Assembly (NCBI GenBank): GCA_964425275.1 | Contig: CAYRLZ010000019.1 | Location: 1-60,629, forward strand | Source of the DNA: an uncultured bacterium | GTDB lineage: Bacteria; Hydrothermota; Tepidihabitantia; Tepidihabitantales; JBDRVQ01 | Length of the DNA stretch: 60,629 bases | Reading direction: 5' to 3' | In this document: positions 2,239 to 57,700 of the stretch, one piece after another | How positions within the stretch are numbered: position 1 is the stretch's first letter | How the letters are laid out: the number at the start of each line of letters is the position of its first letter | Made by a program: the position numbers and the translations under genes | Notes under the pieces: generated by a model | Told to the model about the DNA's origin: nothing | What the model saw: the letters and a program-made list of their open reading frames with translations, nothing else | The model's database searches: none

Positions 2239-2304
2239 AGGTATAAGGGTCGTTTCCTAATACCAACTTCCCAAGGGTATCTATTTTTTATCATCTTGAA
2301 GCAA

Positions 2305-2345
2305 GTGAATTCACCGCGACGAAGAAGATGGTGAAGATGGATTAA
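2305..2345 (+). repeat. module-boundary repeat, copy C
   Basis: GTGAATTCACCGCGACGAAGAAGATGGTGAAGATGGATTAA. It ends in an in-frame TAA. Confidence 0.85.
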
Positions 2346-15338: not shown

Positions 15339-15719
15339 ATGCCAACCTTAAATCAATTAGTAAGAAAGAGAAGAGAGAAGGTAAAAAAACGTTCTAAGAC
15401 ACCGGCTCTATCCTCCTGTCCGCAGCGCCGGGGGGTTTGCACCCGGGTCTATACCACTACTCCCAAAAAACCGAATTCGGCACTCCGCAAGGTCTGCAAA
15501 GTTAGATTGACAAGTGGCTATGAGGTAATTGCCTATATCCCAGGAGAAGGACACAATCTTCAGGAACACTCAATCGTTCTATGCCGGGGAGGAAGAGTGA
15601 AAGACCTCCCTGGTGTCCGTTATCATGTGGTAAGAGGTATTTACGATTGTGCCGGTGTGGAAGGAAGAAGAAGGGGTCGCTCGCTCTATGGTGCCAAGAG
15701 ACCAAAAGAGACAAAATGA
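15339..15719 (+). CDS. rpsL: 30S ribosomal protein S12
   Basis: 126 aa with PTLNQL..., [10 protein letters not shown]. Confidence 0.97.
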
Positions 15720-15767
15720 AGAGAGGAGCGAGAAATCAATGTTTAATTAACCAGAAGGAGCGATAAT

Positions 15768-16238
15768 ATGTCAAGGAGAAAAAGAGCAGCGGTGAGGAGT
15801 ATCCCCCCGGATCCAATTTATAACTCAACATTAGTGGCTAAATTTATTAATAACCTGATGTGGGAAGGAAAACGAACCGTGGCCCAGAAGATTTTCTACT
15901 CAGCACTGAAGTTAATTGAAAAGAAGACAAAAGAAGATGGTTTTGCCGTCTTTCAGAAGGCGATTAACAATGTGAAGCCGTTATTAGAGGTTAGACCGCG
16001 CCGGGTAGGTGGTGCTACCTACCAGATTCCCGTAGAGGTTCCGGCACGACGGAAGGAGTCTTTAGCGATAAAATGGCTAATCCAGGCGGCGCGGTCGCGT
16101 AGTGAACATCGGATGATAGAAAAATTATGTAATGAACTGATTGATGCGGCAAAAGGTCAAGGGATAGCGGTTAAAAAACGGGAGGATACCCATAAGATGG
16201 CTGAGGCAAACCGTGCCTTTGCCCACTTCCGTTGGTAA
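15768..16238 (+). CDS. rpsG: 30S ribosomal protein S7
   Basis: 156 aa S7-family sequence ending in ...ANRAFAHFRW. Confidence 0.97.
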   Translation: MSRRKRAAVRSIPPDPIYNSTLVAKFINNLMWEGKRTVAQKIFYSALKLIEKKTKEDGFAVFQKAINNVKPLLEVRPRRVGGATYQIPVEVPARRKESLAIKWLIQAARSRSEHRMIEKLCNELIDAAKGQGIAVKKREDTHKMAEANRAFAHFRW

Positions 16239-16350: not shown

Positions 16351-16667
16351 CTGGATATATCTCTATAACCTTCGCTACGATGAGGCATAGAGCCAATAAT
16401 AAGATTCCCAATAGGGCTCTTTATAGAAAAGAGAATAGCATCCCGAATAGCACTCTGAATAGGGCGGAGAATAGAACCCCCAATAGGATAGGGAATAGAA
16501 CTCTCAATAGAAAAGAGAATAGGATTACCGATAGGCAAGAGAATAGAATACCGAATAGGATAGAGATTAGAGCCGAGAATAGGTAGAATAATAGGGCATT
16601 TAATACCATACCTAATAGCACCCCCTGTAGCACTCCCCCCTTAAAAAAGAAAAATCCCCTTCCGTGC
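16351..16667. repeat. AATAG-core 12-nt phased repeat array, copy 1 (21 units at 16381-16632, plus conserved flanks)
   Basis: Cutting 16381-16632 by hand into 12-mers puts (A/T)ATAG at positions 6-10 of nearly every unit with no phase slip. Both flanks are shared with 47647-47956. Confidence 0.9.
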
Positions 16668-16698
16668 GAATTAGTAAATACGCTTTACGGTTTACGCT

Positions 16699-16761
16699 CT
16701 TAATAAAATTAGCCTTTTTCTCATATCTAAATATAGAGTAAAAATCCGCTCAAAGTGTTTC
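16699..16761. repeat. 63-nt conserved block, copy 1
   Basis: CTTAATAAAATTAGCCTTTTTCTCATATCTAAATATAGAGTAAAAATCCGCTCAAAGTGTTTC is identical to 48064-48126 in my hand comparison. Confidence 0.9.
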
Positions 16762-16842
16762 TCTAAATTTAAGAATTTATCTCACTCAACTCCCTGGGCT
16801 AAATTTTGCTTTTTCGGGAAAATGCTCAGAAAGGCTTGTCGG

Positions 16843-18153
16843 TTATTTCTGAGCGAAGTTAATCTTTAATGGCTTTAAAAACTGGTAGTATTGATAACCA
16901 ATATCCCGGATAACTTTTGTCTCACTCTCCCGACTAAGGTCAGGGAATTGACGAGAGACTCTTTTCAAATGTCTCTTGGCCAGTCGGTAAAAGGGGTTCA
17001 GTTCTAAGGCAATCTCTAAGAATAATTTACCAGCCGCCAATTCACCCCGAACCAGGTGACAGACTGCCTTATTGGCATAAACCCGAAAGATTTCCGGATA
17101 GGTAATTCTATTCTCCAAAAGGTAAGCAAAAAACCGGTTTATTTTCTTTAAGGCACGGTCAAAATCTCTTTCGTTCAGAGATTCAACTACCTGATGATAT
17201 TTTTCATACATCGTGGGAATCGGGTTTCCGGAGACGCTCATCTTTATATCAGGCAAGAGCCCTTTTTCACTTGCCTCCCGTGCCTTCTCGGAGGGGGATT
17301 TACCACCTAATCTCTTTTGCGGGCAGAGATTGTAAAATTGAATAAGGCTTTCGGTTATCTCCACCCAGGCGTCATTATAATCCTTTCGTTTTAGGGGTAT
17401 TAAACTGAGTAACAGATGCAATGAAGTAGAGAGTTCACCAACCAATTCGTTATCAATCCATTCTTTAATCGTTGCGCTATCAACAAATTTATTAAGACCA
17501 AATTTTGTTAGGACATTTTGTAGGTTCTCTTCGGCATCTTTTAGGGTAGAGAATTTCTTGGGAGGAATTGTCTCTCTTTCCTCTCGGAAAAAATAATCCC
17601 ATATCACCTTGGGATTCCAATCTTCTTTGGACCGACGGTAGGTTCTTTCCAGTGATTGGCTCATTTTGATTGGCAATAATGGCGGGTTAGCACTAACCAA
17701 TTCGTAATGCCCGCCGACTTTGGCCACCCGACCCGGGAATACCTGTTCCGCGGAAACCGAAAAGGTAAGGAGGCATTCTTTAACCCAATAGACCCGGCCC
17801 GTTTGGAGGTTTTCCAGTAAGAGCCCTTCGCCCAATCTCACTTCTTTAACTTTATAGAAACCATAGCAGTTATCTTGGAGGTCTTTATAAACCTGAAGTC
17901 GGGTAGCGTCTAAATTATCCGGATTGGTTAAATAAAAGTCCCCAAGGGGGGTCCGCCCATTGCTCAACTTAAAGTCATAGACAAACCATTCGTTAAATAA
18001 TCCGGTCTCTTCTGCCAAATCAATTTTGCTTTCATCAATTTTTGATTGAGGGGCTAAATCAAAAAACTCGCTTAAGGCGCGCTTGATATCCTTTTGAAAC
18101 TGGGGCTGAGAAAAATAATAATCCAAAAGTCTCCTTATGGTTCCTCGTTCCAT
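16843..18153 (-). CDS. hypothetical cytoplasmic protein with a TPR-like C-terminus
   Basis: 436-aa ORF with no signal peptide. The C-terminal segment (AVCHLVRGELAAGKLFLEIALELNPFYRLAKRHLKRV) looks TPR-like. I do not recognise a family. Confidence 0.6.
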   Translation of the reverse strand: MERGTIRRLLDYYFSQPQFQKDIKRALSEFFDLAPQSKIDESKIDLAEETGLFNEWFVYDFKLSNGRTPLGDFYLTNPDNLDATRLQVYKDLQDNCYGFYKVKEVRLGEGLLLENLQTGRVYWVKECLLTFSVSAEQVFPGRVAKVGGHYELVSANPPLLPIKMSQSLERTYRRSKEDWNPKVIWDYFFREERETIPPKKFSTLKDAEENLQNVLTKFGLNKFVDSATIKEWIDNELVGELSTSLHLLLSLIPLKRKDYNDAWVEITESLIQFYNLCPQKRLGGKSPSEKAREASEKGLLPDIKMSVSGNPIPTMYEKYHQVVESLNERDFDRALKKINRFFAYLLENRITYPEIFRVYANKAVCHLVRGELAAGKLFLEIALELNPFYRLAKRHLKRVSRQFPDLSRESETKVIRDIGYQYYQFLKPLKINFAQK

Positions 18154-26702: not shown

Positions 26703-26778
26703 AATACACTATTTTAACCCTAACATCTTGATTTTACAGGACTTATCGGATTTTTGCTTGATTTTAGGGTATCGCTCC

Positions 26779-26982
26779 CCCTATGCCTTACCCTACCTCT
26801 TACTTAATGCCTTACTGGGTCTTTTAGTCTGTCCTTTACTCTATCCCTTACCTAACCCCTCTCCCTACCTCCTTCTCTTACCCTTTCTCTCCTCTTCTCT
26901 ATCTCCTTCTGATACGCTCCCTGATAGGCTCTCTAATCCCTTCCCTGTGCCTCCTTCTCTCTCTTTCTCTGAACCTCCCCCT
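26779..26982. repeat. pyrimidine-rich 12-nt phased array (about 17 units), degenerate
   Basis: Hand segmentation gives CCCTATGCCTTA / CCCTACCTCTTA / CTTAATGCCTTA / CTGGGTCTTTTA / GTCTGTCCTTTA / CTCTATCCCTTA / ... / CTCTCTTTCTCT / GAACCTCCCCCT. The + strand is C/T-dominated. Confidence 0.6.
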
Positions 26983-27009
26983 TCGTCTCATTTTGATTTG
27001 TGTGTTCAA

Positions 27010-27038
27010 TTGACAAAATTAGATTGTTAAATTATAGT
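27010..27038 (+). promoter_or_regulatory. sigma-70-type promoter, leaderless geometry
   Basis: TTGACA (27010-27015), 17-nt spacer, TATAGT (27033-27038). The ATG at 27046 lies 7 nt after the -10 element, with no SD. Confidence 0.6.
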
Positions 27039-47582: not shown

Positions 47583-47621
47583 GATTAAAATTTAGGGGAA
47601 CCTGATAAAAAGGTTTCCCCC
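47583..47621 (-). terminator. minus-strand terminator-like hairpin downstream of array 2
   Basis: On the minus strand: GGGGAAACCT-tttatc-AGGTTCCCC followed by TAAATTTTAAT. There is no T-run on the + strand. Confidence 0.5.
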
Positions 47622-47646
47622 AGGAAACTTCTATCCATTAGAATCA

Positions 47647-47956
47647 CTGGATATTAACCTTTGCTACGATGAGGCATAGAGCCAATAATAGCACTCTGAA
47701 TAGAACAGTTTATAGGAAGGAGAATAGCATCACCAATAGCATCTCCAATAGGAGAGAGAATAGATTTCTGTATAGGAAGGAGAATAGACCTCTCAATAGA
47801 AAAGAGAATAGGATTATCAATAGGAAAGAGAATAGGGTAGGAAATAGAATTCCGAATAGGCAGGAGAATAGGGTATAGAATAGGGCATTTAATACCATCC
47901 TAAATAGCACCCCCTGTAGCACTCCCCCCTTCAAAAAGAAAAATCCCCTTCGGTGC
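47647..47956. repeat. AATAG-core 12-nt phased repeat array, copy 2 (21 units at 47670-47921, plus conserved flanks)
   Basis: Same flanks, unit count and phase as 16351-16667, with diverged inter-core positions. Confidence 0.9.
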
Positions 47957-48063
47957 TGGGTGGCTTAGTCGCAGATAAAAGGAGTTAGGTCTTTTTAATT
48001 AGTTATTATCTTATCTCATTTTTACCTCCCCAGTATAAAATATAAGTTATTGATTTAACTTCA

Positions 48064-48126
48064 CTTAATAAAATTAGCCTTTTTCTCATATCTAAATATA
48101 GAGTAAAAATCCGCTCAAAGTGTTTC
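48064..48126. repeat. 63-nt conserved block, copy 2
   Basis: Identical to 16699-16761. Confidence 0.9.
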
Positions 48127-48194
48127 ATGGAATTTTAATTTTCAAAAGAGAGAAATATCATTTCGGAATGAGTTGAGAAGGGTTTGGAATGAGT

Positions 48195-49778
48195 TTAAAA
48201 TAACTTTCGGCTATAGGATAGACTTATCTTCTCCGAAGAAAAACTCTTCTCCTTTGCCGAAGAGAAGATACTGAAATCGCCATTGAGATTTAAGATGTCC
48301 TGTTTCGTCAGAGAATAATTAAGACCCGAACGGAAAGAAGTGTTTTTGCCTAAAGCGGAAGGTTGATAGGAAAGGGTGAGATTACCTTTCAACCGACCTT
48401 TTAATAAAGGGGGTGGACTTGCGGTCAAATTATAACTCTGGTAGTTCGGTTTCGGTTGGGTATCAGAAGGTGAAAGATTGAATACCCGACTGAAAGAAGT
48501 AGAGAAGGTAATCGGGATTTTTAAGCTGAGGGAATAATTTAATCCTGTGGTTAAAGTTCGGCGGGAAGGCGAGGAAGAGATTGGAATTTTATTCTTATAA
48601 TCCTGATAGGTCAAAATCAAATTGAGATTCTGATCGAAGCCAAAAGCCGAATAGCGAAAGTTTGGTGTGAGATTTAAGTTTTGGATTAAAGTATTAACCT
48701 TAAAACTATCGCTTATCCCCTCTCTTTCTTTTAATGTCGCCTTCCCATTATAATTGAGATTTATATTTACCACTTTTAGTGGTGTGGTGCGGAGAGAAAA
48801 ACCTAAGCCCCGATTTTGGGTGGTCGCTAATTTATCGTTGATTAAGTTATCCTCCTCTCTTTCCCAACTTACCCCCATCTCAGTTTTCGGAATGATTTTC
48901 ATTGTAATCCCAATCTTAAATCTTCGGGAATCGTTTTTCCGATAAGAAAGCCCCAGAGAGGTAAAACCAGGACCAATTTGCCCTAAGGAGAAATCAAGGG
49001 TGAAGAGTTTATGATTAAACTTCAATCCACCCCGGAAGGCGTAATCAACTCGGGAGGAATAACGGGGCTGGTAGAAAGAATAGGCAAAGCGCGGAACCTC
49101 TTTCAAGTAGATGGTATCGCTTCTTAAATCCCGGGTATGGACACTACCGGTAACCTCAAAGTCAAAGAAAAGATAACGGAAGAGAGAGAAATTGGAACCA
49201 AAACCGAGAACTAAATTCTCCTGGGGGGCTAAGGGTAGGGTATCTTTCATCTTGATTGAACTCGTATCGTCCTTCGCCTTCAGGATGGTCAAAGATAGAA
49301 AATCCGCGCCCAATTTCAAACCATAGAGATAACGATTATACGACCATTCACTCGTATCCGCCCTTTTTGCCCGACCGCCAACCAGAGAGAAGCGAAACCT
49401 TTTCGGAAATAGTTCAATCCCGGCCCCATAGAGCGAGACATTAGATAAGGTATATTCGGAAAAGGCCGGCGAGAAATCACCGAGATATATCCTCCCCCAT
49501 CCCCAGGATGGGTTGAGATTAAACTGATGCACCCTTTGCGCCGTGAATCTGTCCTCGGAGGTGTAAAATAGACCAAACCCAACACTAAATAAAGGGAAAC
49601 CAAACGCCGAGTTCAGGGAGAGATGGTAAGATGATGAAGGCTTTCGCTTCTTAGTTGTGTCCGAATTGTGATAAAAATCAAAACCCGAGGAGAACTCACC
49701 CGTAAGGGTTGGCTTCGGTATCCTTATCGCCCAAAGCCAAGAAAAGAAAAAGAGGAAGAGGAAAATAATCCGAGTCAT
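48195..49778 (-). CDS. outer-membrane beta-barrel protein (family unknown)
   Basis: 527 aa with a signal peptide. Alternating-hydrophobicity strands throughout. The C-terminal ...LSYSRKLF ends in an aromatic residue typical of OMPs. Confidence 0.65.
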   Translation of the reverse strand: MTRIIFLFLFFFSWLWAIRIPKPTLTGEFSSGFDFYHNSDTTKKRKPSSSYHLSLNSAFGFPLFSVGFGLFYTSEDRFTAQRVHQFNLNPSWGWGRIYLGDFSPAFSEYTLSNVSLYGAGIELFPKRFRFSLVGGRAKRADTSEWSYNRYLYGLKLGADFLSLTILKAKDDTSSIKMKDTLPLAPQENLVLGFGSNFSLFRYLFFDFEVTGSVHTRDLRSDTIYLKEVPRFAYSFYQPRYSSRVDYAFRGGLKFNHKLFTLDFSLGQIGPGFTSLGLSYRKNDSRRFKIGITMKIIPKTEMGVSWEREEDNLINDKLATTQNRGLGFSLRTTPLKVVNINLNYNGKATLKEREGISDSFKVNTLIQNLNLTPNFRYSAFGFDQNLNLILTYQDYKNKIPISSSPSRRTLTTGLNYSLSLKIPITFSTSFSRVFNLSPSDTQPKPNYQSYNLTASPPPLLKGRLKGNLTLSYQPSALGKNTSFRSGLNYSLTKQDILNLNGDFSIFSSAKEKSFSSEKISLSYSRKLF

Positions 49779-51769
49779 CTTTCCGGTCGCAAAACCTCGG
49801 ACCGCTCACTCTCATTCCCCGAGGTATCAAAGACCGTAACCCAGTAGTAGTAGTTCTCATTACCCGTAGGGTCAGAGAATCGATTCTCTTTTAGTATCGC
49901 CTTATTCAATCTCTCCGGAATCCCGGTTGGCAGATTAGCCCGATAGACATTATAACCCAAAAGGTCATCAATCCTCACCTCCTCCCAGGTCAAAAGGACT
50001 GTCCCTTCTTTATAAATAACCTTTAATTCTTTCACTGGTGGTGGTGGAGATATATCCCTCGGTATTATCTCAAAACTCTTCTTCTCGCTCTCATTACCAA
50101 CGCTATCAACCGCGGAGACATAGTAAAAGTATCTCTTCCCTTTTGCCACTTCTTTATCCAGGTAATTATTAGTATCCCGCGGAACTTCTTTCCGGAGTAA
50201 AACCTCTTGCCCTTCTTCCTGACGATAGACCCGATACTTTGCCAAATCCGGTGTCAGACTCACCGGCCAGATAACCTCCACACTGCCATCATCATTATTT
50301 TTACAATAGATTGAAGGTGGCGGACTGGGCGGCTCATCATCCGGAATCTTCACTTCTACTAACTCCCTCGGACTTTCATTCAGGGCAACATCAACCTGAG
50401 AGACATAATAGTAATAGGTCCGACCCGGATACAACCCTCTTTTGGCAAAGCCGGAGTCAACAAAACTGGTAATCTCCTTTTTTATTGGCGGTCCAACCAG
50501 ACGAAATGGGTTATCCTTCTCTTCGGCCCGATAGACATAATAACCATCCAAATCCGGTGTCATCTGTGGTTGCCAATTCAATTCGACGATGTGCTTCTCT
50601 ACCTTGGCTTGGAGATTGGTTACGGGTGGTGGCGGTGTTGTATCCTTGGGCAGACCAAAGGCAGCGGTTGACTGCCTTCCCTCTAAGCCATCGTCATCAA
50701 TTGCCGCTACCCGATAGACATACAACATTCCGGTCGCGCTCACATCCCGGTCAACAAATCTCCGCTCCTCCTTTGGTATCGGTTTTGGGTTAATCTTCTT
50801 AAACTCACCGTGGATTGACCAACTCCGATAGATATTATAACCGATAACATCTTCATCCGGGGAAGGCTCCCATTCTAAAACAATCGCCCCTTCTTCCGAA
50901 GTAGCATTGACGACCGGTGGGGGTGCGGGTGGGGTTATATCCTTTAACTTGACCAGAACAATCTCTGATTTCAAACCCTCTGCGCCCACGAGGTCAACCG
51001 GAGTTATGTAATACTGGTAAGTCTTCCCTTCCAAAACATTCTTATCAATATAGAAGAGTTTCTCTCCGGTTCTCAGATAAGGAAAGGGCAAGACCTTCTT
51101 AAAATCCTTCTCATCTTCGCTCTTCTTATAGATATTAAAGCCGACCACCAGGTCTCTTTTATCACCCGTCCATTTGGGATATTCCCAGTTAAGTCGCAGC
51201 TGGTCCTTGCCAACCGTAAAAGTAATCTTCTCTACCCTTTTATCCGGTGGTCGGTGTTTCTGCACCAAAGCCTTCTCTTCACCCTTAAAGAACTCTTCTC
51301 CTTTGTAATTCAAGAAGGCGATGCGGTAGGTATATTCTTCGCCCGGATTTACCATTGAATCAATATAAATCTTTCCCAAGACTAATGCTACTTTTCGACT
51401 GACTAATGATAATGCGCCGCCGATACCCGGGTCTTTCAGTTTTCTCAGAAGGGAGAATTCGTCTTCGGTCTTTAAGGCATTACTGAGCCATTGATACTCC
51501 TCTTCACCCAAGATATCCCGGGCAAGAAATGGCTCATTTATTGGCGTTATCGGCTCCGGGGTTAAAAGCAAAAACTCTCTTTCGCCGCTCTTTTGGCGAT
51601 AGACATTAAATCCGACCATCTCCTTTGGTGGGGAGGCGAGGATTAAATAGACCTTGACTTCATCAGGAATTAGGAAAAATGGCGGGGCCTTGGTTTGCGC
51701 CCAAGTGAAAAAGAATAAGCCGCTGAGCGCAAAAAGGCTTAAGATATTCTTTGCCGACCTTTTCATCAT
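49775..51769 (-). CDS. secreted protein with multiple fibronectin type III-like domains
   Basis: 664 aa with a signal peptide. At least six repeats with D(I/T)(T/S)PP(P)P linkers and (G)Y(N/Y/R)(I/V)YR motifs. The stop overlaps the downstream start (ATGA). Confidence 0.75.
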   Translation of the reverse strand: MMKRSAKNILSLFALSGLFFFTWAQTKAPPFFLIPDEVKVYLILASPPKEMVGFNVYRQKSGEREFLLLTPEPITPINEPFLARDILGEEEYQWLSNALKTEDEFSLLRKLKDPGIGGALSLVSRKVALVLGKIYIDSMVNPGEEYTYRIAFLNYKGEEFFKGEEKALVQKHRPPDKRVEKITFTVGKDQLRLNWEYPKWTGDKRDLVVGFNIYKKSEDEKDFKKVLPFPYLRTGEKLFYIDKNVLEGKTYQYYITPVDLVGAEGLKSEIVLVKLKDITPPAPPPVVNATSEEGAIVLEWEPSPDEDVIGYNIYRSWSIHGEFKKINPKPIPKEERRFVDRDVSATGMLYVYRVAAIDDDGLEGRQSTAAFGLPKDTTPPPPVTNLQAKVEKHIVELNWQPQMTPDLDGYYVYRAEEKDNPFRLVGPPIKKEITSFVDSGFAKRGLYPGRTYYYYVSQVDVALNESPRELVEVKIPDDEPPSPPPSIYCKNNDDGSVEVIWPVSLTPDLAKYRVYRQEEGQEVLLRKEVPRDTNNYLDKEVAKGKRYFYYVSAVDSVGNESEKKSFEIIPRDISPPPPVKELKVIYKEGTVLLTWEEVRIDDLLGYNVYRANLPTGIPERLNKAILKENRFSDPTGNENYYYWVTVFDTSGNESERSEVLRPER

Positions 51770-51776
51770 CTCCTCC

Positions 51777-54700
51777 CTAATAACTAAATCGCACCGAAGA
51801 GAATGTGCTTAATCCCGCGCCATTGATCGCGGAAACCTTAAAGATATAAAACCTCCCGCTGGCTATCCCAATCGTGCGGAGTTGACTGGGGGTGAAGGCG
51901 ATACTTCTCATCCCAGTGGGCGCATCGGTCCAGTTGGTAATTGGGTCGCCGTTTTCCGCTTCAAAACGGAAACGATAGGCATAGATACCCGACTCTCGGT
52001 CATAGGTGCTATCCCAGGCAAAGGTGTAATATAAATTCTTTGTGTAACGGACACCAAAAGAAGGTGGTGGTGTCTGATCCGAAAATTGAACAATCAAGGA
52101 GGCGGTATCCATACTCTCTAAGGTCATCGGCTCAATTGTTGGCAACCTTGAATGATTAAAAGCCCGAACCGTCAAAAATAATGTATCCCCATTTTTCAAA
52201 GGAGAGGAGGGAAGCGCATAGAAATAGGCAAAGGTCGGAGAAAGCCTCGTGGTATCAACAACATCAGTCCCAAACGGTCTCTTGCCAATGGAATAGACAT
52301 AGCGCCAAATCCCTGATTCTCGGTCCTCTGACCTCTGCCAGCGGGCAAATAGGGTCTGGGGTCCGCGATAAAGGGTCTGCAAGAATTCAAGGATTTGAGG
52401 TTTAGTTGGCGGCGAGGTATCAATTTTTATTACCTTCTCTCCTTCCGCACCCCACAAACCAACTCCATTCTTTGCCTTCACCCCTAATTTATAGGTTTCG
52501 CCCGAAGCAAGACGCAGATTTCGGATATTCACCTCGGTCCGGCCACCAGAAGATGTCCAGTCTAAAACCGGATTATAAACATACCGCCTCAAAACTGGAC
52601 TATAGAAATAACTACCCAATCGGTATTGATACTCCTCAATCCCGGACTCACCATCAAAGGCGGACCATTGAGCATAAATCTGACCGGAACTGGCAATAAG
52701 CGTGTCCGTAGTTATTGCTGGTCTTGTTGGCGGCGTGGTATCAAGCGAACTCATCCGGTTTCGCTGCGGTGGGACATCCGGACCATAATAATCGACCCGA
52801 ACTACCCCTTTTCTGGTTATCGGATAGCCACCCGCACCCCTGGCGCGTAAGAATATGCCGTAGTCACCTGGCTCAGTGATTTTTGATATGAATGGTAGCC
52901 AGAGGCTTCGGGCTAATCCCAAGGTCTTGGGAGAGGGGAGTATTCTAAACCTTTCCCCTTCCTTTCTCAACCAGAAACTATAGTCAACAACCCTTACCGG
53001 ATGGGTTGCCGACCAAGAGAGGTTAAGCCGACCAAAGCCACTGGGCATTGTCGCATCGGAGATGTATTCGCCCGGAAAAGATGTGATTCTTGGCGGCGTC
53101 AAAAGTCGTGCCAATTCCGACTTTCTCCTTGATGCCGGACTAAAGTTTAATGTTCGGGCAATCATCGGATAGGTCCTTCCTCTAATCGTTACTGTCCTTC
53201 TCGGAACCGGTGTTGGCACATCACCAGAAAGTTCAATCTGGTCATAAAGGTCATAGAGCAATTCATAAAATTCGCTCTTCCGAGCATAGACCCGGTCCAA
53301 GGAATTTGTCCAGTTCGCCCAGGAACGGGAAAAATTACCCGTGCTCCTCTGATAAACCGCAATCACTGTATCCCTCCTTTCCGGCGCTCGCCTTAAAATC
53401 TCCTGATAGCCGGCCTTGGGGATATTATACCAGATCTCCATTCCGAAACTCACCCACATATTCCGCAGACCTTCAAGGTCCGAAGGAATCGGTGGCCAAT
53501 TCTCAACCGGTTCCTGAAGCAAGACACGATAAATGATCTCTCGCCGGCTGTTGGTCCAAATCACCAATGGCAATGAGTCGATCCGGTTAACCGCACTCCA
53601 CAAAAATCTAAGAAGGGCGGTGCTACAGGGCAAATTCCCCCGCCAGACAACTCTCCCCCCAACGGTGTCCTCCCGATAAATCTGGCGGTTAAAGAAGAAA
53701 TTAATCTTGCGCGCGGCATTATTCTGGTTCTTATCCAGATATTGACCAAAGAGCCAGTAGTAGTCAATCACCTTCTGGTAACCCTGATAATAAAGACTGC
53801 AAAGAGTAGACATATCATTTCTCTGATACCGGGTGCTAATATATAAGAGGCTATCTAATTTTAATAGTTTCTCATCAATCACCCCAGCAATCCTTAAAAG
53901 TTCCTGGCGGTATTGCTCATTATCGCTCTTGGCATTATTTATTGCTCCCTTCTGCTCATCGGCCTGAGTATAATCAATATCATAACCGACCTGGGCGGTA
54001 ACAGTAAACCCTGTATCTGTGCCTTGGACCGTAATTGTTTGGGAATTTTTCCCTCTCAGTGGTGAGCCTAACAACCCAACCTCCCTTACCGTTGGCAACC
54101 TTTCTTCTAAGATTGCCCGATAACCCTCAAGCCTTCGGTTAACCCTTGCCTGGGTGCTATCAATCTCACTCCGGAGGAAATAACCAGTCAACCTCTCTTT
54201 CTCATTTAAGGTATCCCTCATCCTTTTCAACTCCGCGGAGACCGGGTCAAAGATTCCCGAATCCCTCTGGGAGGCAAAAATCGCCGGCAGTGTTCCAAAA
54301 ATCATTAGCCAACGATTCACTTCTATGTCATACCAACTGCGATAGTTTTCATATTGCCAGCCACTCACCTCAACCAATGCCATCCCGGCCCTTTGCCTCT
54401 GTTCCTCGCTCAAGGCGAACATTGTCATCTTCGCCTCATCCATTGCCTCCTTCACCCGCTCCTTTTCCGCCTCCATCTCATTCGCCATATTCCTCGCATC
54501 CGCAATCAACTGGTCATACCTTGAATTTCTCCCGGTTCCGCCATCAAAACCATTCTTGCCCATTGCGACCCAGATGCTACCATTAAATACCTCAACCCAT
54601 AACGCCTCAACCCGTAAGCTACCAACGCAATAGATTAGATATTCCGGCTCACCAATCAAAGCCCCTTCTAAACCAAAACTAACACCAGCCAATCCCCATA

Positions 54701-57700
54701 AGATCTCCCCCTCCGCCCGGACACCGGCATAACCACCCCAGGACCTCGGGTCAATCTTTTTATACCAGACCATACCATCAAAATCGATACTCCCGCTCAG
54801 GATGTAAATATCAATCCCGAAACCAAATGAGACCTCAAGTAAAAATCCCGGATTACCAATAAAGAAATCGGTTTCCGCATCAACGATCCTGATGACCGAA
54901 AGTTCTGCCCCACCCATAATCCCCCAGGCATCCGGAGAATAGACATAAAATTCAAAATAACCATTTCCGGTGATCAATTCAACGACATCAACATCAATCT
55001 CAACCCGGCCTTCGGCATAAGCCGGATTCCAGCCAACCGAAAGATAAAGCATCCCTTTCGCATCAATCCCCGGCTCCGCAATCTTTAAGACCCTTGCCTC
55101 CGCATCCAGGTCAAACCTTCGGGTCGATAGCGTGAGAAGCGCCTTTCCGGTCACTAAGGCATCGCTTCCCAAGAATTCGACCGCTCCGTAAAGAAGTAAG
55201 GCAAAGGCACCCGGGTCACTGGCGCTCGGCCTCTTCGCTTGAAACTTATTTTCCATCGCCGGTCGGGTGAAACCGCAGTGCGTCCGAACCGTAGCTATAT
55301 CAATCTCCTCCGGATACCAGAAGAAACCACCACCCAAATCAGTCAAGGTAATACCCGGACCAACCGGAACCTGAAGCCCCCGCACCGCCACGAATAGACC
55401 AAATGATGGGTGTCCGTCCCGATTCCCAATCTTACCAACACAGGTAACCCCCATCCCCGAAGTGATATTCAGTGTTCCGGCAAACCTCAGATTTCCGGTG
55501 GGATTAGAATAATCATAATCCGCCAGAAGTTGCATTCCGGCAATCGAGAGGTCCGCACCGGTTAAAGTGACCTTTTTGGAACCACCACTGGTCGGCTTAT
55601 AGACTAAAAGTCGGTCAAAGCCACCGGAGGCAATACTACCACCACTCCCGATATTTATCGCCGCATCCTCCATTAAGAAAAAGCCACGACAACTAATGCT
55701 CTGCGTCCCACTCTGAAAGTTCCTCCTTTCCCCTTCACCGGTCGTCTGGTCAGAATTGAAAGAAAGGGTCGTATCCTTATCACTCCATCGGATTAAACCG
55801 ATACTGATATTAAAAACCTCCAAGATCTTAAAGCCTCCACCCCGAACTGTTGGATATTCAATATCACCATTGGTTCTAATCTTCAAACCCTCAATCCTTG
55901 CCCCACCACCAACCCCATAGACATTAATCCCTAATGAGCAATTGAAGACAAAGGCAAAGGGCAGTGGCTCAATCGCCATCGTTTCCAACTTAAATCGGAT
56001 GACATCACCCAAATTGAGCCTTTTATCCCGAATTACCGGTATGGATGGCGGTAAGTTCCAGTTCAGATTGCCGTTGAAATCAATCGTAATCGCGCCTTCT
56101 AACTGACCTAAGCGATTTAATTCGCCAATCGCCAATCGCCTCTGCTCAACGGGCAGAAGTCGATCCGCATCATCCTTGAACGGAAAGTAGATATCCATCG
56201 CCATCTCAATCTTTGACTGGTTCAATTTCAAGTCGTTATTAACGATGGTTAAGGTTATGCCTAAGTAGGTTAAATCCAGGGTGCAGTCAACTACCGGAAT
56301 CCGAAACTCCGAAAGGTCATTATTTGTTCCCCTCCGGTCCGGAGATAATTCATTCAAAGGCACAATCTTACCAACCGTATTGCCATCCCTGTCAATTAAA
56401 AAACTGAAACGGGTCCGGGGTAAAATCGTATCAATCGGTTTTGGTAGACTCTCAATCTTACCGGTAAACCTCAGATAGTATTGGTTCAAACTGTCATAGA
56501 AATTTATCGTATCTAATTTCAGATAGGGGTTATTGGGGATAAACCGAAATGGGTCGGCGAAGGCAAAACGACCGGTGATTTTACCCTGATGGGTAACCTT
56601 GAAATTGGTAAATTGCGTCAAAACGGTTTGCGTCCCCTGCCGGGAAAGTTTTATATCGCCACAAAACTCCGCCCATAAGGTATCACCGGTCTTACCAACC
56701 GTAATCGCCCGATTAGGACTGATATCGTGCAAGGAAAAGGTAACACCCCATTTGCTAAATTCTTGGGTGGTGGAAAACCCCTTTCCCTCAATCCCGGTCC
56801 TTCTAACGATTAAATCGTTCAACTCGTATAAAGTGACATTGATTACCGGGATATTCAACTTGGCATTCACCGAGATAAAATCAACCGTTCCTCCCCGCTT
56901 CTCAAATCTTAACTTGGTCACTTTCAAAAAGTTATTCTTATAGCCAAAGAAACTGGTATCCGCTCCTGCGCTCCTCTGCACAACACCAGTATCAATCGTT
57001 GAGCGGAATCGGTCCGAAGGATTTAAGACAATCTTGAAATTGGACAAGGTGCAGGATGAAACCGAATTGTTATCGAGAGAGAGCAACTTCATCGTTGCCA
57101 CTGTCCCATCCGGAAAACGATAACGATTGCTTCCCGGTGGACCATCCGGTATTAAGGGATTGCTAATCTCTTTAATTAAGGCAACGCCATCAACCAAAAG
57201 CAATGAGTCAACCCTCAATCCGGTATCGCGAACCACCTCGTAATTGACACTATCTTTTAATTCATTAGGCTCAGTAATCTCAATCTTCAACTTATGAGAG
57301 CCGATGTTTCCCTCACCAGTTGGCAAAGAGATTGAAAAGAAGGAATCGGGTAAGCCATAGGTATGTTGACTGAAAACCCGCCAAGGTGAGTTATCAATCA
57401 AGAACCTTCCCCGGACATCGCCACTCCCCCTTCCCCAAAACTTCACCTTGGCCTGAACCGTCGCATTTACTGGAATCTGTCGGGCAAGGAACAATCGGAC
57501 CGAATCAAGAGAGAACTCCGGTTCTCTTGTCGTCTTATAAGTAAATTGCCAGATCTCACTCTTCCCTTCGTTATCACCAATCGGCACATCATTTCGGTCC
57601 TTGGCTTGAACCTGCCAGCAATAACTCTTATTCTCCTCTAAGGCTTGGGCGGAATTGGGATAGGTGAAACTTATTCGGTCAACAATCACCTCGCTGTGAT

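Follow-up and report, generated by a model that had tools for sequence, protein, structure and literature searches.

A dispersed intergenic repeat element with AATAG motifs phased at 12 bases in an uncultured WOR-3 bacterium

An uncultured candidate-division WOR-3 bacterium carries dozens of copies of an intergenic element of about 0.55 kb (about 570 nt) that is built around roughly 20 AATAG motifs spaced exactly 12 bases apart, with freely drifting bases between them. We identified two copies in the analysed window (the whole 60,629-nt stretch of contig CAYRLZ010000019.1) and at least 42 distinct arrays, comprising 831 units, in metagenomes holding the same organism (source samples JGI 3300022548 and the Ga0209102 and Ga0129301 samples). 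The element fits a docking lattice for a protein that has not been identified better than it fits a protein gene or any described RNA.

The array that prompted this analysis is real, and the pattern is stronger than first described. Cutting positions 16381-16632 into 12-mers reproduces the counts of the initial annotation exactly: 14 of 21 units have AATAG at positions 6-10 and 19 of 21 have TAG at positions 8-10. Three AATAG motifs at 12-nt spacing (up to 1 mismatch) occur 34 times in the window against 0.02 expected and AATAG-N7-AATAG occurs 21 times against 0.13 expected, with all hits inside the two arrays. The second copy (47655-47954) aligns to the first without a gap over 300 nt at 80% identity, and the differences are concentrated in the spacers. 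As the annotation stated, the first array lies between rpsG (+ strand, ending at 16238) and a minus-strand 436-aa ORF ending at 16843; the wider context, rpoC-rpsL-rpsG, is chromosomal. The described alternation of pyrimidine-rich and purine-rich spacers is also real and gives a 24-nt superperiod. By contrast, the statement that none of the repeat ORFs has a Shine-Dalgarno sequence requires correction, as the minus-strand xLFx ORF has an SD-like GGGGGGAG 11 nt upstream of its in-frame GTG.

We next asked whether the two copies belong to a larger family. Over the 831 units, TAG is in phase in 92% and AATAG in 77%. The array proved to be the core of a dispersed element with other conserved modules, which in minus-strand order comprise a 5' block, linker, head, array, tail and, in some copies, a terminal hairpin (Table 1). 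Any "sense" features of the element lie on the minus strand. All arrays come from one population, so the copies are not independent, and because the collection scans covered only part of the matching rows the family size is a minimum. A scan of genome contigs for four AATAG at 12-nt spacing returned, among the rows obtained, only ordinary homogeneous tandem repeats from unrelated taxa and was uninformative, while a scan of viral contigs found only simple repeats of giant viruses. The element shows no similarity to plasmid, phage or viral sequences.

Table 1. Coordinates of the repeat arrays and associated modules within the window.
Position	Strand	Feature	Supporting observation
16381..16632	.	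Array copy 1: 21 units of 12 nt, core AATAG on + (CTATT on -)	Homologous unit by unit to 41 other arrays
16351..16380	.	Conserved "tail" flank of copy 1 (CTGGATAT..TAACCTTCGCTACGA)	Shared with copy 2 and with 17 of 42 family members
16633..16667	.	Conserved "head" flank of copy 1; + strand CTCCCCCCTTAAAAAAGAAAAATCCCCTTCCGTGC, - strand GCAC..GGGGATTTTTCTTTTTTAAGGGGGGAG	Nearly invariant in the family; a related head precedes the type-3 arrays
16421..16633	-	Open frame xLFx (70 codons, GTG start), which may or may not be translated	Open in about 37 of 42 copies; sequence absent from a collection of about 15 billion predicted proteins
16679..16698	.	Short heptad repeats (TACGCTT on +, CGTAAAG-type on -) in the linker of class-b copies	
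16699..16770	-	Conserved 5' block of the element; - strand GAAACACTTTGAGCGGATTTTTACTCTATATTTAGATATGAGAAAAAGGCTAATTTTATTAAG	22 distinct copies with an invariant core
47600..48169	-	Full-length element, copy 2	blastn against 20 paralogous loci at 72-87% identity over 440-580 nt
47670..47921	.	Array copy 2: 21 units	
47604..47628	-	Terminator-like hairpin GTTTCCTGGGGGAAAC followed by CTTTTTATCA	Present in only 10 of 37 copies with enough flank
48010..48031	-	Conserved GGGGAGGTAAAAATGAGA: strong SD plus ATG opening a mini-ORF of 2-6 codons	
48006..48089	-	Small ORF MRKRLILLSEVKSITYILYWGGKNEIR, starting at the ATG of the 5' block; status not established	ORF of 26-37 aa kept in 19 of 22 copies; no family match
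26720..26990	+	"Type-3" relative: 12-nt phased array with core CTTAC (TTA in phase) and a homologous head, directly upstream of the promoter of the ThyX-like gene	At least 6 copies in the same organism, several in tandem with AATAG elements

Comparison of the copies indicates that selection acts on the nucleic acid rather than on a protein, as the initial annotation had argued. Across 38-42 paralogous arrays, mean column entropy by unit position is 1.12, 1.26, 1.06, 1.02, 0.82, 0.27, 0.16, 0.04, 0.00, 0.01, 0.83 and 0.94, a smooth bell around TAG with no codon (3-nt) periodicity. The seven spacer bases are near saturation, with pS of about 0.45 and pN/pS of 0.85-1.19 in all six frames. The possibility that the arrays are too young to have acquired synonymous changes is thus ruled out, with TCT/TCC exchanges being frequent. 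The annotation had specified core drift at synonymous positions under a retained amino-acid repeat as an observation that would count against its view; among these copies the would-be synonymous sites of the core are instead frozen, and against genome codon usage, since CTA accounts for 8% of Leu codons and TTC for 31% of Phe codons. Every gap in a MAFFT alignment of 26 arrays is exactly 12 nt.

The annotation further proposed that neighbouring spacers pair into short hairpins presenting the core in loops, as in CsrB or RsmZ. Some neighbouring spacers are complementary (for example, CTCTT/AAGAG at 16417-16433), but the folding model is not supported and we consider it very unlikely. Both strands fold less well than dinucleotide shuffles (mean z of +1.13 and +0.65 over 40 arrays). 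The annotation had suggested testing for compensatory changes, and RNAalifold on 26 arrays finds only 5 pairs and -0.46 kcal/mol. Proposed partner positions do not covary; for instance, position 2 of the pyrimidine-rich unit (rank 8) has an entropy of 1.9, whereas its proposed partner has 0.6. A closing helix between GCTAC in the tail and GTAGC in the head was likewise rejected because, by inspection, the variants ACTAC and TATAC are not compensated. The annotation did not recognise the array as any described RNA family, and this is supported, as Rfam 15 searched at gathering thresholds, and at E<=10 with both copies, returned nothing relevant.

We also searched for evidence of a protein product. 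No gene caller reports an ORF at the array. A profile of 12 xLFx peptides found no relatives among 5.8 billion clusters, its one hit being an unrelated TARA satellite-like repeat, and an exact look-up of all six window ORFs found none in the protein collection. Pfam and NCBIfam gave no match, and PADLOC gave none for the three proteins tested (the small 5' ORF, the xLFx ORF and the 436-aa upstream neighbour of copy 1); downstream neighbours were not scanned. The plus-strand xxNR ORF starting MRHR was rejected, since its ATG is lost or frame-shifted in most copies (variant ATGAGGATGAAACC) and this frame carries more stops than the shuffle expectation.

The interpretation offered in the initial annotation is thus partly supported: its nucleic-acid argument stands, its alternative of a phased DNA-binding array remains fully viable, its hairpins and with them the specific CsrB/RsmZ analogy do not, and its two-copy view was incomplete. 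Our preferred reading, to which we assign a probability of roughly 0.55, is that the array is a lattice of about 20 equally spaced recognition sites (core AATAG/CTATT, with TAG/CTA essentially invariant) coated cooperatively by one sequence-specific protein as a filament or superhelix, within a lineage-specific element that has been copied to dozens of unrelated intergenic sites. On duplex DNA, sites 12 bp apart rotate by about 50 degrees per step. The periodicity, the dispersed multicopy nature, the nucleotide-level purifying selection on core and spacing, the neutral spacers and the lack of conserved RNA secondary structure follow directly from the sequence comparisons, whereas the involvement of a protein, and its cooperativity, are inferences, as no binding was assayed. 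Our data do not separate reading on duplex DNA from reading on a transcript, nor do they indicate which strand matters. We lean tentatively to DNA, with RNA only somewhat less likely, because spacing never varies by anything except whole units, which is typical of box or iteron arrays such as ParG on parH and unlike known RNA sponges, and because we found no sigma70-type promoter of the kind this organism uses at bona fide genes. What the coating would achieve is not known, though silencing or insulation of the element, its propagation, or titration of the protein are possibilities.

Related arrays with a different core but the same 12-nt step are what co-evolving protein and site pairs would give. 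These include the type-3 family and an ATTAG array in another WOR-3 genome (relative L246), though nhmmer with the element profile finds no homology to the latter, so only the architecture is shared. Several observations sit less comfortably with a DNA lattice. No binding protein has been identified and nothing adjacent is shared between copies, whereas known box and iteron arrays sit next to the genes of their binding proteins on plasmids or phages rather than at 40 or more chromosomal sites. The element also carries strand-specific features that a pure DNA lattice does not need, namely an SD plus ATG, retained small ORFs and, in some copies, a terminator-like hairpin, and the downstream gene is co-oriented with the minus strand in 26 of 36 cases.

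These features leave possible an RNA version of the lattice, in which the element is a gene family for an unstructured RNA of about 0.5 kb, transcribed from the minus strand, whose 3' half displays about 20 CUAUU(C) sites (or AAUAG, if the plus strand is the transcript) that titrate or scaffold an RNA-binding protein, a sponge or scaffold in the functional sense of CsrB or CrcZ but with single-stranded, strictly phased sites. The conserved 5' block begins at a sharp homology boundary preceded by a TAAAAT -10-like hexamer, a U-tract follows the hairpin, and terminator-like sites score 14 of 36 on the minus-sense strand against 5 of 36 on the other. The low structure of both strands is as expected for a single-stranded platform, and RNAalifold of the 5' part proposes a helix (GGAAAAAGGC with GCTTTTATCC) with a few double changes. 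However, no -35 element is conserved, because homology ends at the -10-like hexamer, while the organism's real promoters are textbook TTGACA-17-TATAGT; within the 5' block, TTGAGC and TATATT are only 12 nt apart and other combinations are poor. No transcript has been shown and there are no expression data, and the promoter and terminator evidence is weak and partial, the hairpin being absent from most copies. Known RNA-protein arrays tolerate variable spacing, which is never seen here, and the array strand that would be RNA is 35% purine, below the coding strand of every long ORF in the window (0.386-0.586).

Two further readings appear unlikely. The xLFx ORF survives in most copies and remains a rival; it could be translated into a family of very hydrophobic peptides of about 65-80 aa, (xLFx)n, possibly together with the 27-37-aa ORF of the 5' block, as a type I toxin-like or LDR-like locus in which the periodic CUA-UUC reflects constraint on codons rather than residues. 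Multicopy repeats of about 0.5 kb encoding small hydrophobic toxins exist, for example the E. coli LDR/ldr-rdl loci, the xLFx frame ends at a conserved CTATAA in 30 of 42 copies, and the in-phase triplet is a Leu codon in all three array families (CTA, CTA and TTA). Openness alone leaves the coding question undecided, as a second frame ([PSA]Ixx) is open in about 32 of 42 copies and openness follows largely from composition; a stop-codon depletion test by position-wise shuffling was confounded by the purine and pyrimidine blocks of the spacers and favoured neither side. Against translation, CTA is the rarest Leu codon yet is used in about 92% of units with its third position as frozen as the first two, pN/pS for this frame is 0.85, much like the other five, indels of 3, 6 or 9 nt never occur, and a 4.0-residue period presumably fits no common protein fold. 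Copies with a broken frame but intact core and spacing would weigh against translation, and 5 of 42 copies are of this kind. Alternatively, the element could be a selfish BOX, REP or MITE-like repeat without host function, its core and phasing kept only because a mobilising transposase, recombinase or replication protein binds subterminal 12-bp repeats, with recently moved copies dominating the population. Copies lie at unrelated intergenic sites with functionally unrelated neighbours, several are near-identical to one another, composition is modular and mosaic (including tandem AATAG plus type-3 units), the element is absent from the same locus in relatives, and it breaks assemblies. However, no inverted repeats of 30 nt or more occur in the window and only weak, short, non-terminal ones in the element, one end is ragged, a single IS256-like neighbour is the only associated transposase, and the array is central rather than subterminal at both ends. 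This reading is really a special case of the DNA lattice, since a protein still has to read the sites.

A comparison with characterized systems identifies the closest architectural precedent in plasmid TP228, where 20 degenerate ACTC boxes separated regularly by 4-bp spacers are coated cooperatively by ParG dimers (PMC3130281). Both arrays consist of about 20 short, degenerate, mostly direct repeats at a fixed step with unconstrained or weakly constrained spacers and information concentrated in a 4-5-bp core, but the parH/OF step is 8 bp, its spacers are AT-rich and it is a single plasmid locus next to parFG that acts as centromere and operator, whereas the element described here has no partition genes nearby. 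The c-st prophage tubC has 5-bp iterons bound by TubR, which also spreads along the DNA to form a higher-order ring or filament (PMC6009700); these iterons are not strictly phased, are far fewer and lie adjacent to tubRZ on a plasmid or prophage. A 12-bp register is reported for one such system, the tubC of pBtoxis having 12-bp repeats.

Among RNA systems, CsrB/RsmZ (GGA motifs) and CrcZ (A-rich motifs) likewise carry many copies of a conserved short motif on one non-coding molecule, but at irregular spacing or in hairpin loops and from one to a few gene copies; in our arrays GGA at positions 10-12 is not conserved. TRAP and HutP read 6-11 regularly spaced UAG or GAG triplets as ring-shaped oligomers, with spacers of 2-3 nt (TRAP) or 4 nt (HutP), in the leader of the regulated operon, overlapping a terminator or antiterminator, whereas here the spacers between triplets are 9 nt, there are about 20 sites and the downstream genes are unrelated to each other. 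Pneumococcal BOX, REP/BIME and S. aureus STAR repeats are also lineage-specific, multicopy, intergenic and modular with an internally repeated middle module and mostly unknown function, but their internal repeats are conserved over the whole unit or are palindromic, and none shows a frozen 5-nt core, saturated spacers and a fixed 12-nt register over about 20 units. Type I toxin-antitoxin loci resemble the element in size, copy number and small hydrophobic ORFs but have no phased array; type III ToxI repeats are near-identical units of about 36 nt followed by a terminator and an endoribonuclease toxin gene, whereas the unit here is 12 nt with divergent spacers, and we found no common downstream gene. 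CRISPR arrays have repeats of 23 nt or more with unique spacers of similar length, unlike the 5-nt core and 7-nt spacers seen here.

If a protein does read the lattice, the element offers a highly specific recognition code (a 5-nt core and a 12-nt step), about 800 natural site variants from which binding specificity could be inferred, and sister families with different cores in which co-evolution could be studied. It would extend the box-array principle known from plasmid centromeres to a dispersed chromosomal element in an uncultured phylum or, alternatively, define a new type of unstructured scaffold RNA. A more speculative possibility is that these modules are a previously undescribed kind of bacterial genetic element, each nucleating a protein filament on DNA or on an unstructured RNA, with sub-families (cores AATAG, CTTAC-type and ATTAG) each paired with their own reader; if so, they would form a genome-wide organising, silencing or packaging system in WOR-3 with no counterpart among known nucleoid, partition or sRNA systems. 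As the arrays break metagenome assemblies of this lineage and are invisible to gene callers, Rfam and Pfam, similar core-plus-spacer lattices may be overlooked elsewhere.

Genes downstream of the copies are unrelated and do not form a common regulon; by our reading of their sequences (not scanned against a family library), they include rplF, lysS, accA, a sigma factor and mraZ. Recoding of the in-phase TAG was also considered and rejected, as the window contains no suppressor tRNA and TAG is used as a stop in 5 of its 29 long ORFs.

We first asked whether the 12-nt phasing described in the initial annotation could be reproduced. Cutting copy 1 of the array into 12-mers returns exactly the counts given there, with AATAG at positions 6-10 in 14 of 21 units and TAG at positions 8-10 in 19 of 21, and the observation thus holds. 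The pattern is far beyond chance: three AATAG motifs at 12-nt spacing (up to 1 mismatch) occur 34 times in the window against 0.02 expected, the pair AATAG-N7-AATAG occurs 21 times against 0.13 expected, and every hit lies in one of two arrays. Copy 2 aligns to copy 1 over 300 nt without a single gap at 80% identity, and positions 8-10 are identical in 16 of 16 unit pairs, whereas spacer positions match in only 7-11 of 16. Tandem Repeats Finder detects only weak 12, 24 and 36-nt periods because the units share little beyond the core. As the annotation stated, copy 1 lies between the converging ends of rpsG and a minus-strand gene, here a 436-aa ORF.

Coordinates of the arrays and of associated features. 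Positions refer to the window unless another sequence is named.
Feature	Positions	Strand	Description
Array copy 1	16381-16632		21 units of 12 nt
Array copy 2	47655-47954		region aligned to copy 1
Element around copy 2	47600-48169		only part of the window matched by blastn against the fetched loci
Segment shared with a JGI metagenome contig	47698-57621		99.8% identity
Type 3 array	26720-26990	+	12-nt phased array, core CTTAC with TTA in phase
Promoter of the ThyX-like gene, TTGACA	27010-27015		followed by a 17-nt spacer
Promoter of the ThyX-like gene, TATAGT	27033-27038		7 nt before the ATG
Start codon of the ThyX-like gene	27046		ATG of a 491-aa ORF; leaderless mRNA implied
Heptad repeats	16679-16698		CGTAAAG type, in the linker between the 5' block and the head
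Small ORF of the 5' block	48006-48089	-	begins at the ATG of the conserved 5' block; compared with 21 other loci, kept in 19 of 22 copies
Complementary ends	47603-47613 and 48078-48088		two ends of the putative minus-strand transcript
rpsL-rpsG	15339-16238		not followed by fusA
46-nt segments	888-933, 1603-1648, 2299-2344		three copies upstream of the tRNA cluster
ATTAG array, locus L246	18741-18852 of L246 (GCA_039802085.1, JBDRVU010000004.1)		10 units at a 12-nt step, between a tRNA gene and a divergent ORF

We next asked whether the arrays are confined to the window. A pattern scan of JGI metagenome contigs returned many loci from two metagenomes, Ga0209102 and Ga0129301, and after ordinary homogeneous tandem repeats were filtered out, at least 44 arrays were left, of which 42 are distinct. 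These have mostly 18-21 units, all in one phase and with distinct spacers. One of the contigs is nearly identical to about 10 kb of the window, and the window's rpsG region is also present in JGI 3300022548 and in a Logan assembly. The arrays are therefore paralogues within one organism or population, which uS7 homologues place in candidate division WOR-3, and there are at least a few dozen per genome. Because all of them come from one population and are related by descent, counts of copies overstate the independent evidence. Many of the arrays sit at contig ends, and contigs frequently end inside or next to them (among them L122, the end of a Logan contig from SRR5216256, and many Ga0209102 and Ga0129301 loci); the element therefore breaks short-read assemblies, and its copy number is a lower bound. 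Over 831 units, TAG is in phase in 92% and AATAG in 77%, and the commonest variants (TATAG, AATAC and TGTAG) each occur at fixed units near the array ends.

The array forms the middle of an element of about 570 nt. A blastn comparison of the window with the fetched loci gave matches at 72-87% identity over 440-580 nt, confined to the element around copy 2. An alignment of 15 copies, read on the window's minus strand, shows a sharply bounded 5' block (ATTAAAATT..GAAACACTTTGAGCGGATTTTTACTCTATATTTAGATATGGGAAAAAGGCTAATTTTATTAAGTATAGTTAAATCAATAACTTATATTT), a variable linker containing an invariant GGGAGGTAAAAATGAGAGG, a 'head' (GCAC..GGGGATTTTTCTTTTTGAAGGGGGGAGTGCTACAGGGGGTGCTATT..ATGGTATTAAATGCC), the array, a 'tail' (..CTATTATTGGTTTCATCCTCATCGTAGTAAAGGTTAATATCCAG) and, in some copies, a hairpin GTTTCCTGTGGGGAAAC followed by CTTTTTATC. 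Copy 1 of the window lacks the middle of the linker. Short heptad repeats, 3-6 units long, lie in the linker near copy 1 and in the class-b copies of four other loci (L170, L219, L223 and L238). The A-rich start of the 5' block (TGAGAAAAAGG on the minus strand) is complementary at 10 of 11 positions to the CCTTTTTATCA that follows the hairpin, which could be a 5'-3' pairing or a chance match of A/T runs. A second family, 'type 3', has a head homologous to that of the AATAG element and a 12-nt array with a different core. It has at least 6 copies in the same organism and often lies in tandem with AATAG elements, several copies being directly downstream of them.

We then considered whether the constraint acts on nucleotides or on a protein. 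Units were aligned by rank from the conserved right end in 39 copies, and mean column entropy by unit position is 1.12, 1.26, 1.06, 1.02, 0.82, 0.27, 0.16, 0.04, 0.00, 0.01, 0.83 and 0.94, a smooth bell centred on TAG with no 3-nt periodicity. Nei-Gojobori counts on the spacer codons give pN/pS of 0.85-1.19 in all six frames, with pS of about 0.41-0.49, which is near saturation. Rank-based alignment can misalign copies that differ by unit indels, which inflates pS somewhat, but the contrast between core and spacers does not depend on it. Drift of the core at synonymous positions had been put forward in advance as an observation that would count against selection on the nucleic acid; the copies are old enough for synonymous change, yet the would-be third position of the Leu codon never changes. 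The frozen triplets would also be disfavoured codons in this genome, where CTA is 8% of Leu, TTC 31% of Phe, ATT 49% of Ile, AAT 70% of Asn and AGR 38% of Arg. TAG is a normal stop codon here, and no suppressor tRNA is present in the window. No frame matches Pfam or NCBIfam, and a profile of 12 xLFx peptides finds no relatives among 5.8 billion clusters, the single hit being an unrelated satellite. None of the window's ORFs exists in a collection of about 15 billion predicted proteins that includes this very contig. This confirms, with far more data, the central argument of the initial annotation that selection acts on the nucleic acid.

A reading frame is nevertheless retained. On the minus strand the xLFx frame is open in about 37 of 42 copies, is preceded by GGGGGGAG and in-frame GTG, GTG and ATG codons, and ends at a conserved CTATAA in 30 of 42 copies. 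As evidence of coding this is weakened by three points: a second minus frame ([PSA]Ixx) is open in about 32 of 42 copies but has no start codon, the purine and pyrimidine block structure of the spacers explains much of the shortage of stops, and 3-, 6- and 9-nt indels, which would be harmless to a frame, never occur. The plus-strand xxNR frame is not conserved, its ATG being lost or shifted in most copies and stops being enriched. A separate small ORF of 26-37 aa, M(G/R)KRLILLS(I/E)VKSITYI.., starts in the 5' block and stays open through linkers of different length in 19 of 22 copies; its shape is type I toxin-like, and it has no family match.

The initial annotation had further proposed that neighbouring spacers pair into short hairpins presenting the core in the loop, and this model fails. 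Copy 1 folds no better than shuffles (z of +1.71 on the plus strand and +0.90 on the minus strand), the mean z over 40 arrays is +1.13 (plus) and +0.65 (minus), and RNAalifold on 26 arrays predicts 5 base pairs in 204 columns with a total of -0.46 kcal/mol. Compensatory changes had been named beforehand as a test of the proposed structure, and the proposed partner positions do not covary. The alternation of pyrimidine-rich and purine-rich spacers is real and gives a 24-nt superperiod, but it does not translate into conserved helices. The earlier interpretation is thus only partly supported, with nucleotide-level selection upheld and the hairpins not.

The spacing of the sites is rigid. In a MAFFT alignment of 26 arrays every gap is exactly one 12-nt unit, and array lengths differ only by whole units. 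Known RNA-protein arrays such as CsrB, CrcZ and TRAP sites tolerate variable spacing, whereas fixed registers are typical of DNA box or iteron arrays. The closest architectural precedent that we could document is on plasmid TP228, where 20 degenerate ACTC boxes separated regularly by 4-bp spacers are coated cooperatively by ParG dimers (PMC3130281). In a second example, the 5-bp iterons of tubC are bound by TubR, which also spreads along the DNA (PMC6009700).

Strand and transcription remain unresolved. In favour of the minus strand, a terminator-like hairpin plus U-tract follows copy 2, although it is present in only 10 of 37 copies, and terminator-like sites score 14 of 36 on that strand against 5 of 36 on the other. 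The SD plus ATG motifs lie on this strand, and the downstream gene is co-oriented in 26 of 36 cases, against 19 of 34 for the upstream gene. Against this, no sigma70-type promoter is conserved, the homology ending at a TAAAAT hexamer, whereas real genes in this window have textbook promoters, exemplified by that of the ThyX-like gene. The array's minus strand is also only 35% purine, outside the range of the coding strands of the window's long ORFs. The downstream genes, judged from their sequences without a scan against a family library, are functionally unrelated (rplF, lysS, accA, a sigma factor, mraZ, peptidases and others), so the element is not the leader of a regulon. Among about 40 loci the only transposase-like neighbour is a 357-aa ORF about 280 nt downstream of the array in locus L238, which resembles an IS256/mutator-family transposase by eye from motifs such as HWRHIKTTNPIES.

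These analyses show a dispersed, multicopy element whose array is under strong purifying selection for a 5-nt core and an exact 12-nt register, with neutral spacers, no conserved RNA structure and no coding signature. What reads the array is our inference: the simplest mechanism that needs exactly these properties is cooperative coating by one sequence-specific protein, in which each protomer, or dimer per 24 nt, would read one core. The three core types (AATAG, CTTAC-type and ATTAG), which have the same step, look like co-evolving reader and site pairs. We assign this lattice reading a probability of roughly 0.55. Considered as alternatives, duplex DNA is slightly preferred over RNA as the form that is read, though both assignments are tentative. 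A translated hydrophobic peptide, type I toxin-like, is kept as a rival on account of the retained xLFx frame but seems unlikely as the primary function; it cannot explain the frozen core or the rigid spacing. A purely selfish element is also unlikely, and this possibility overlaps the DNA reading because its mobilising protein would be the reader. The element belongs to no described family; architecturally it differs from previously known phased protein-binding box arrays in its unprecedented context, being chromosomal and present at 40 or more loci, with a 12-nt step and about 20 sites. The pattern is striking, reproducible and testable, but it is lineage-restricted and its mechanism has not been identified.

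Conservation outside this genome had also been named in advance as a criterion, and we examined it in relatives of the organism. Relatives with 76-84% uS7 identity have no array after rpsG, and none was found in the windows of roughly 20 kb that were retrieved from them, with one exception. In a different WOR-3 genome (GCA_039802085.1, 81% uS7 identity), a 10-unit ATTAG array with a 12-nt step lies upstream of a tRNA gene, and it is not detectably homologous by nhmmer. The element has no similarity to plasmid or phage records, viral contigs hold only simple repeats, and Rfam gives nothing even at E<=10. The two large collection scans were not exhaustive, so absence elsewhere is not established by them. 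Elsewhere in the window, three copies of a 46-nt segment, which were not examined, are spaced about 700 nt apart at 70-85% identity. The rpsL-rpsG pair lacks a following fusA in this organism and in each of the WOR-3 relatives examined (loci L242-L263), and what follows rpsG differs between lineages.
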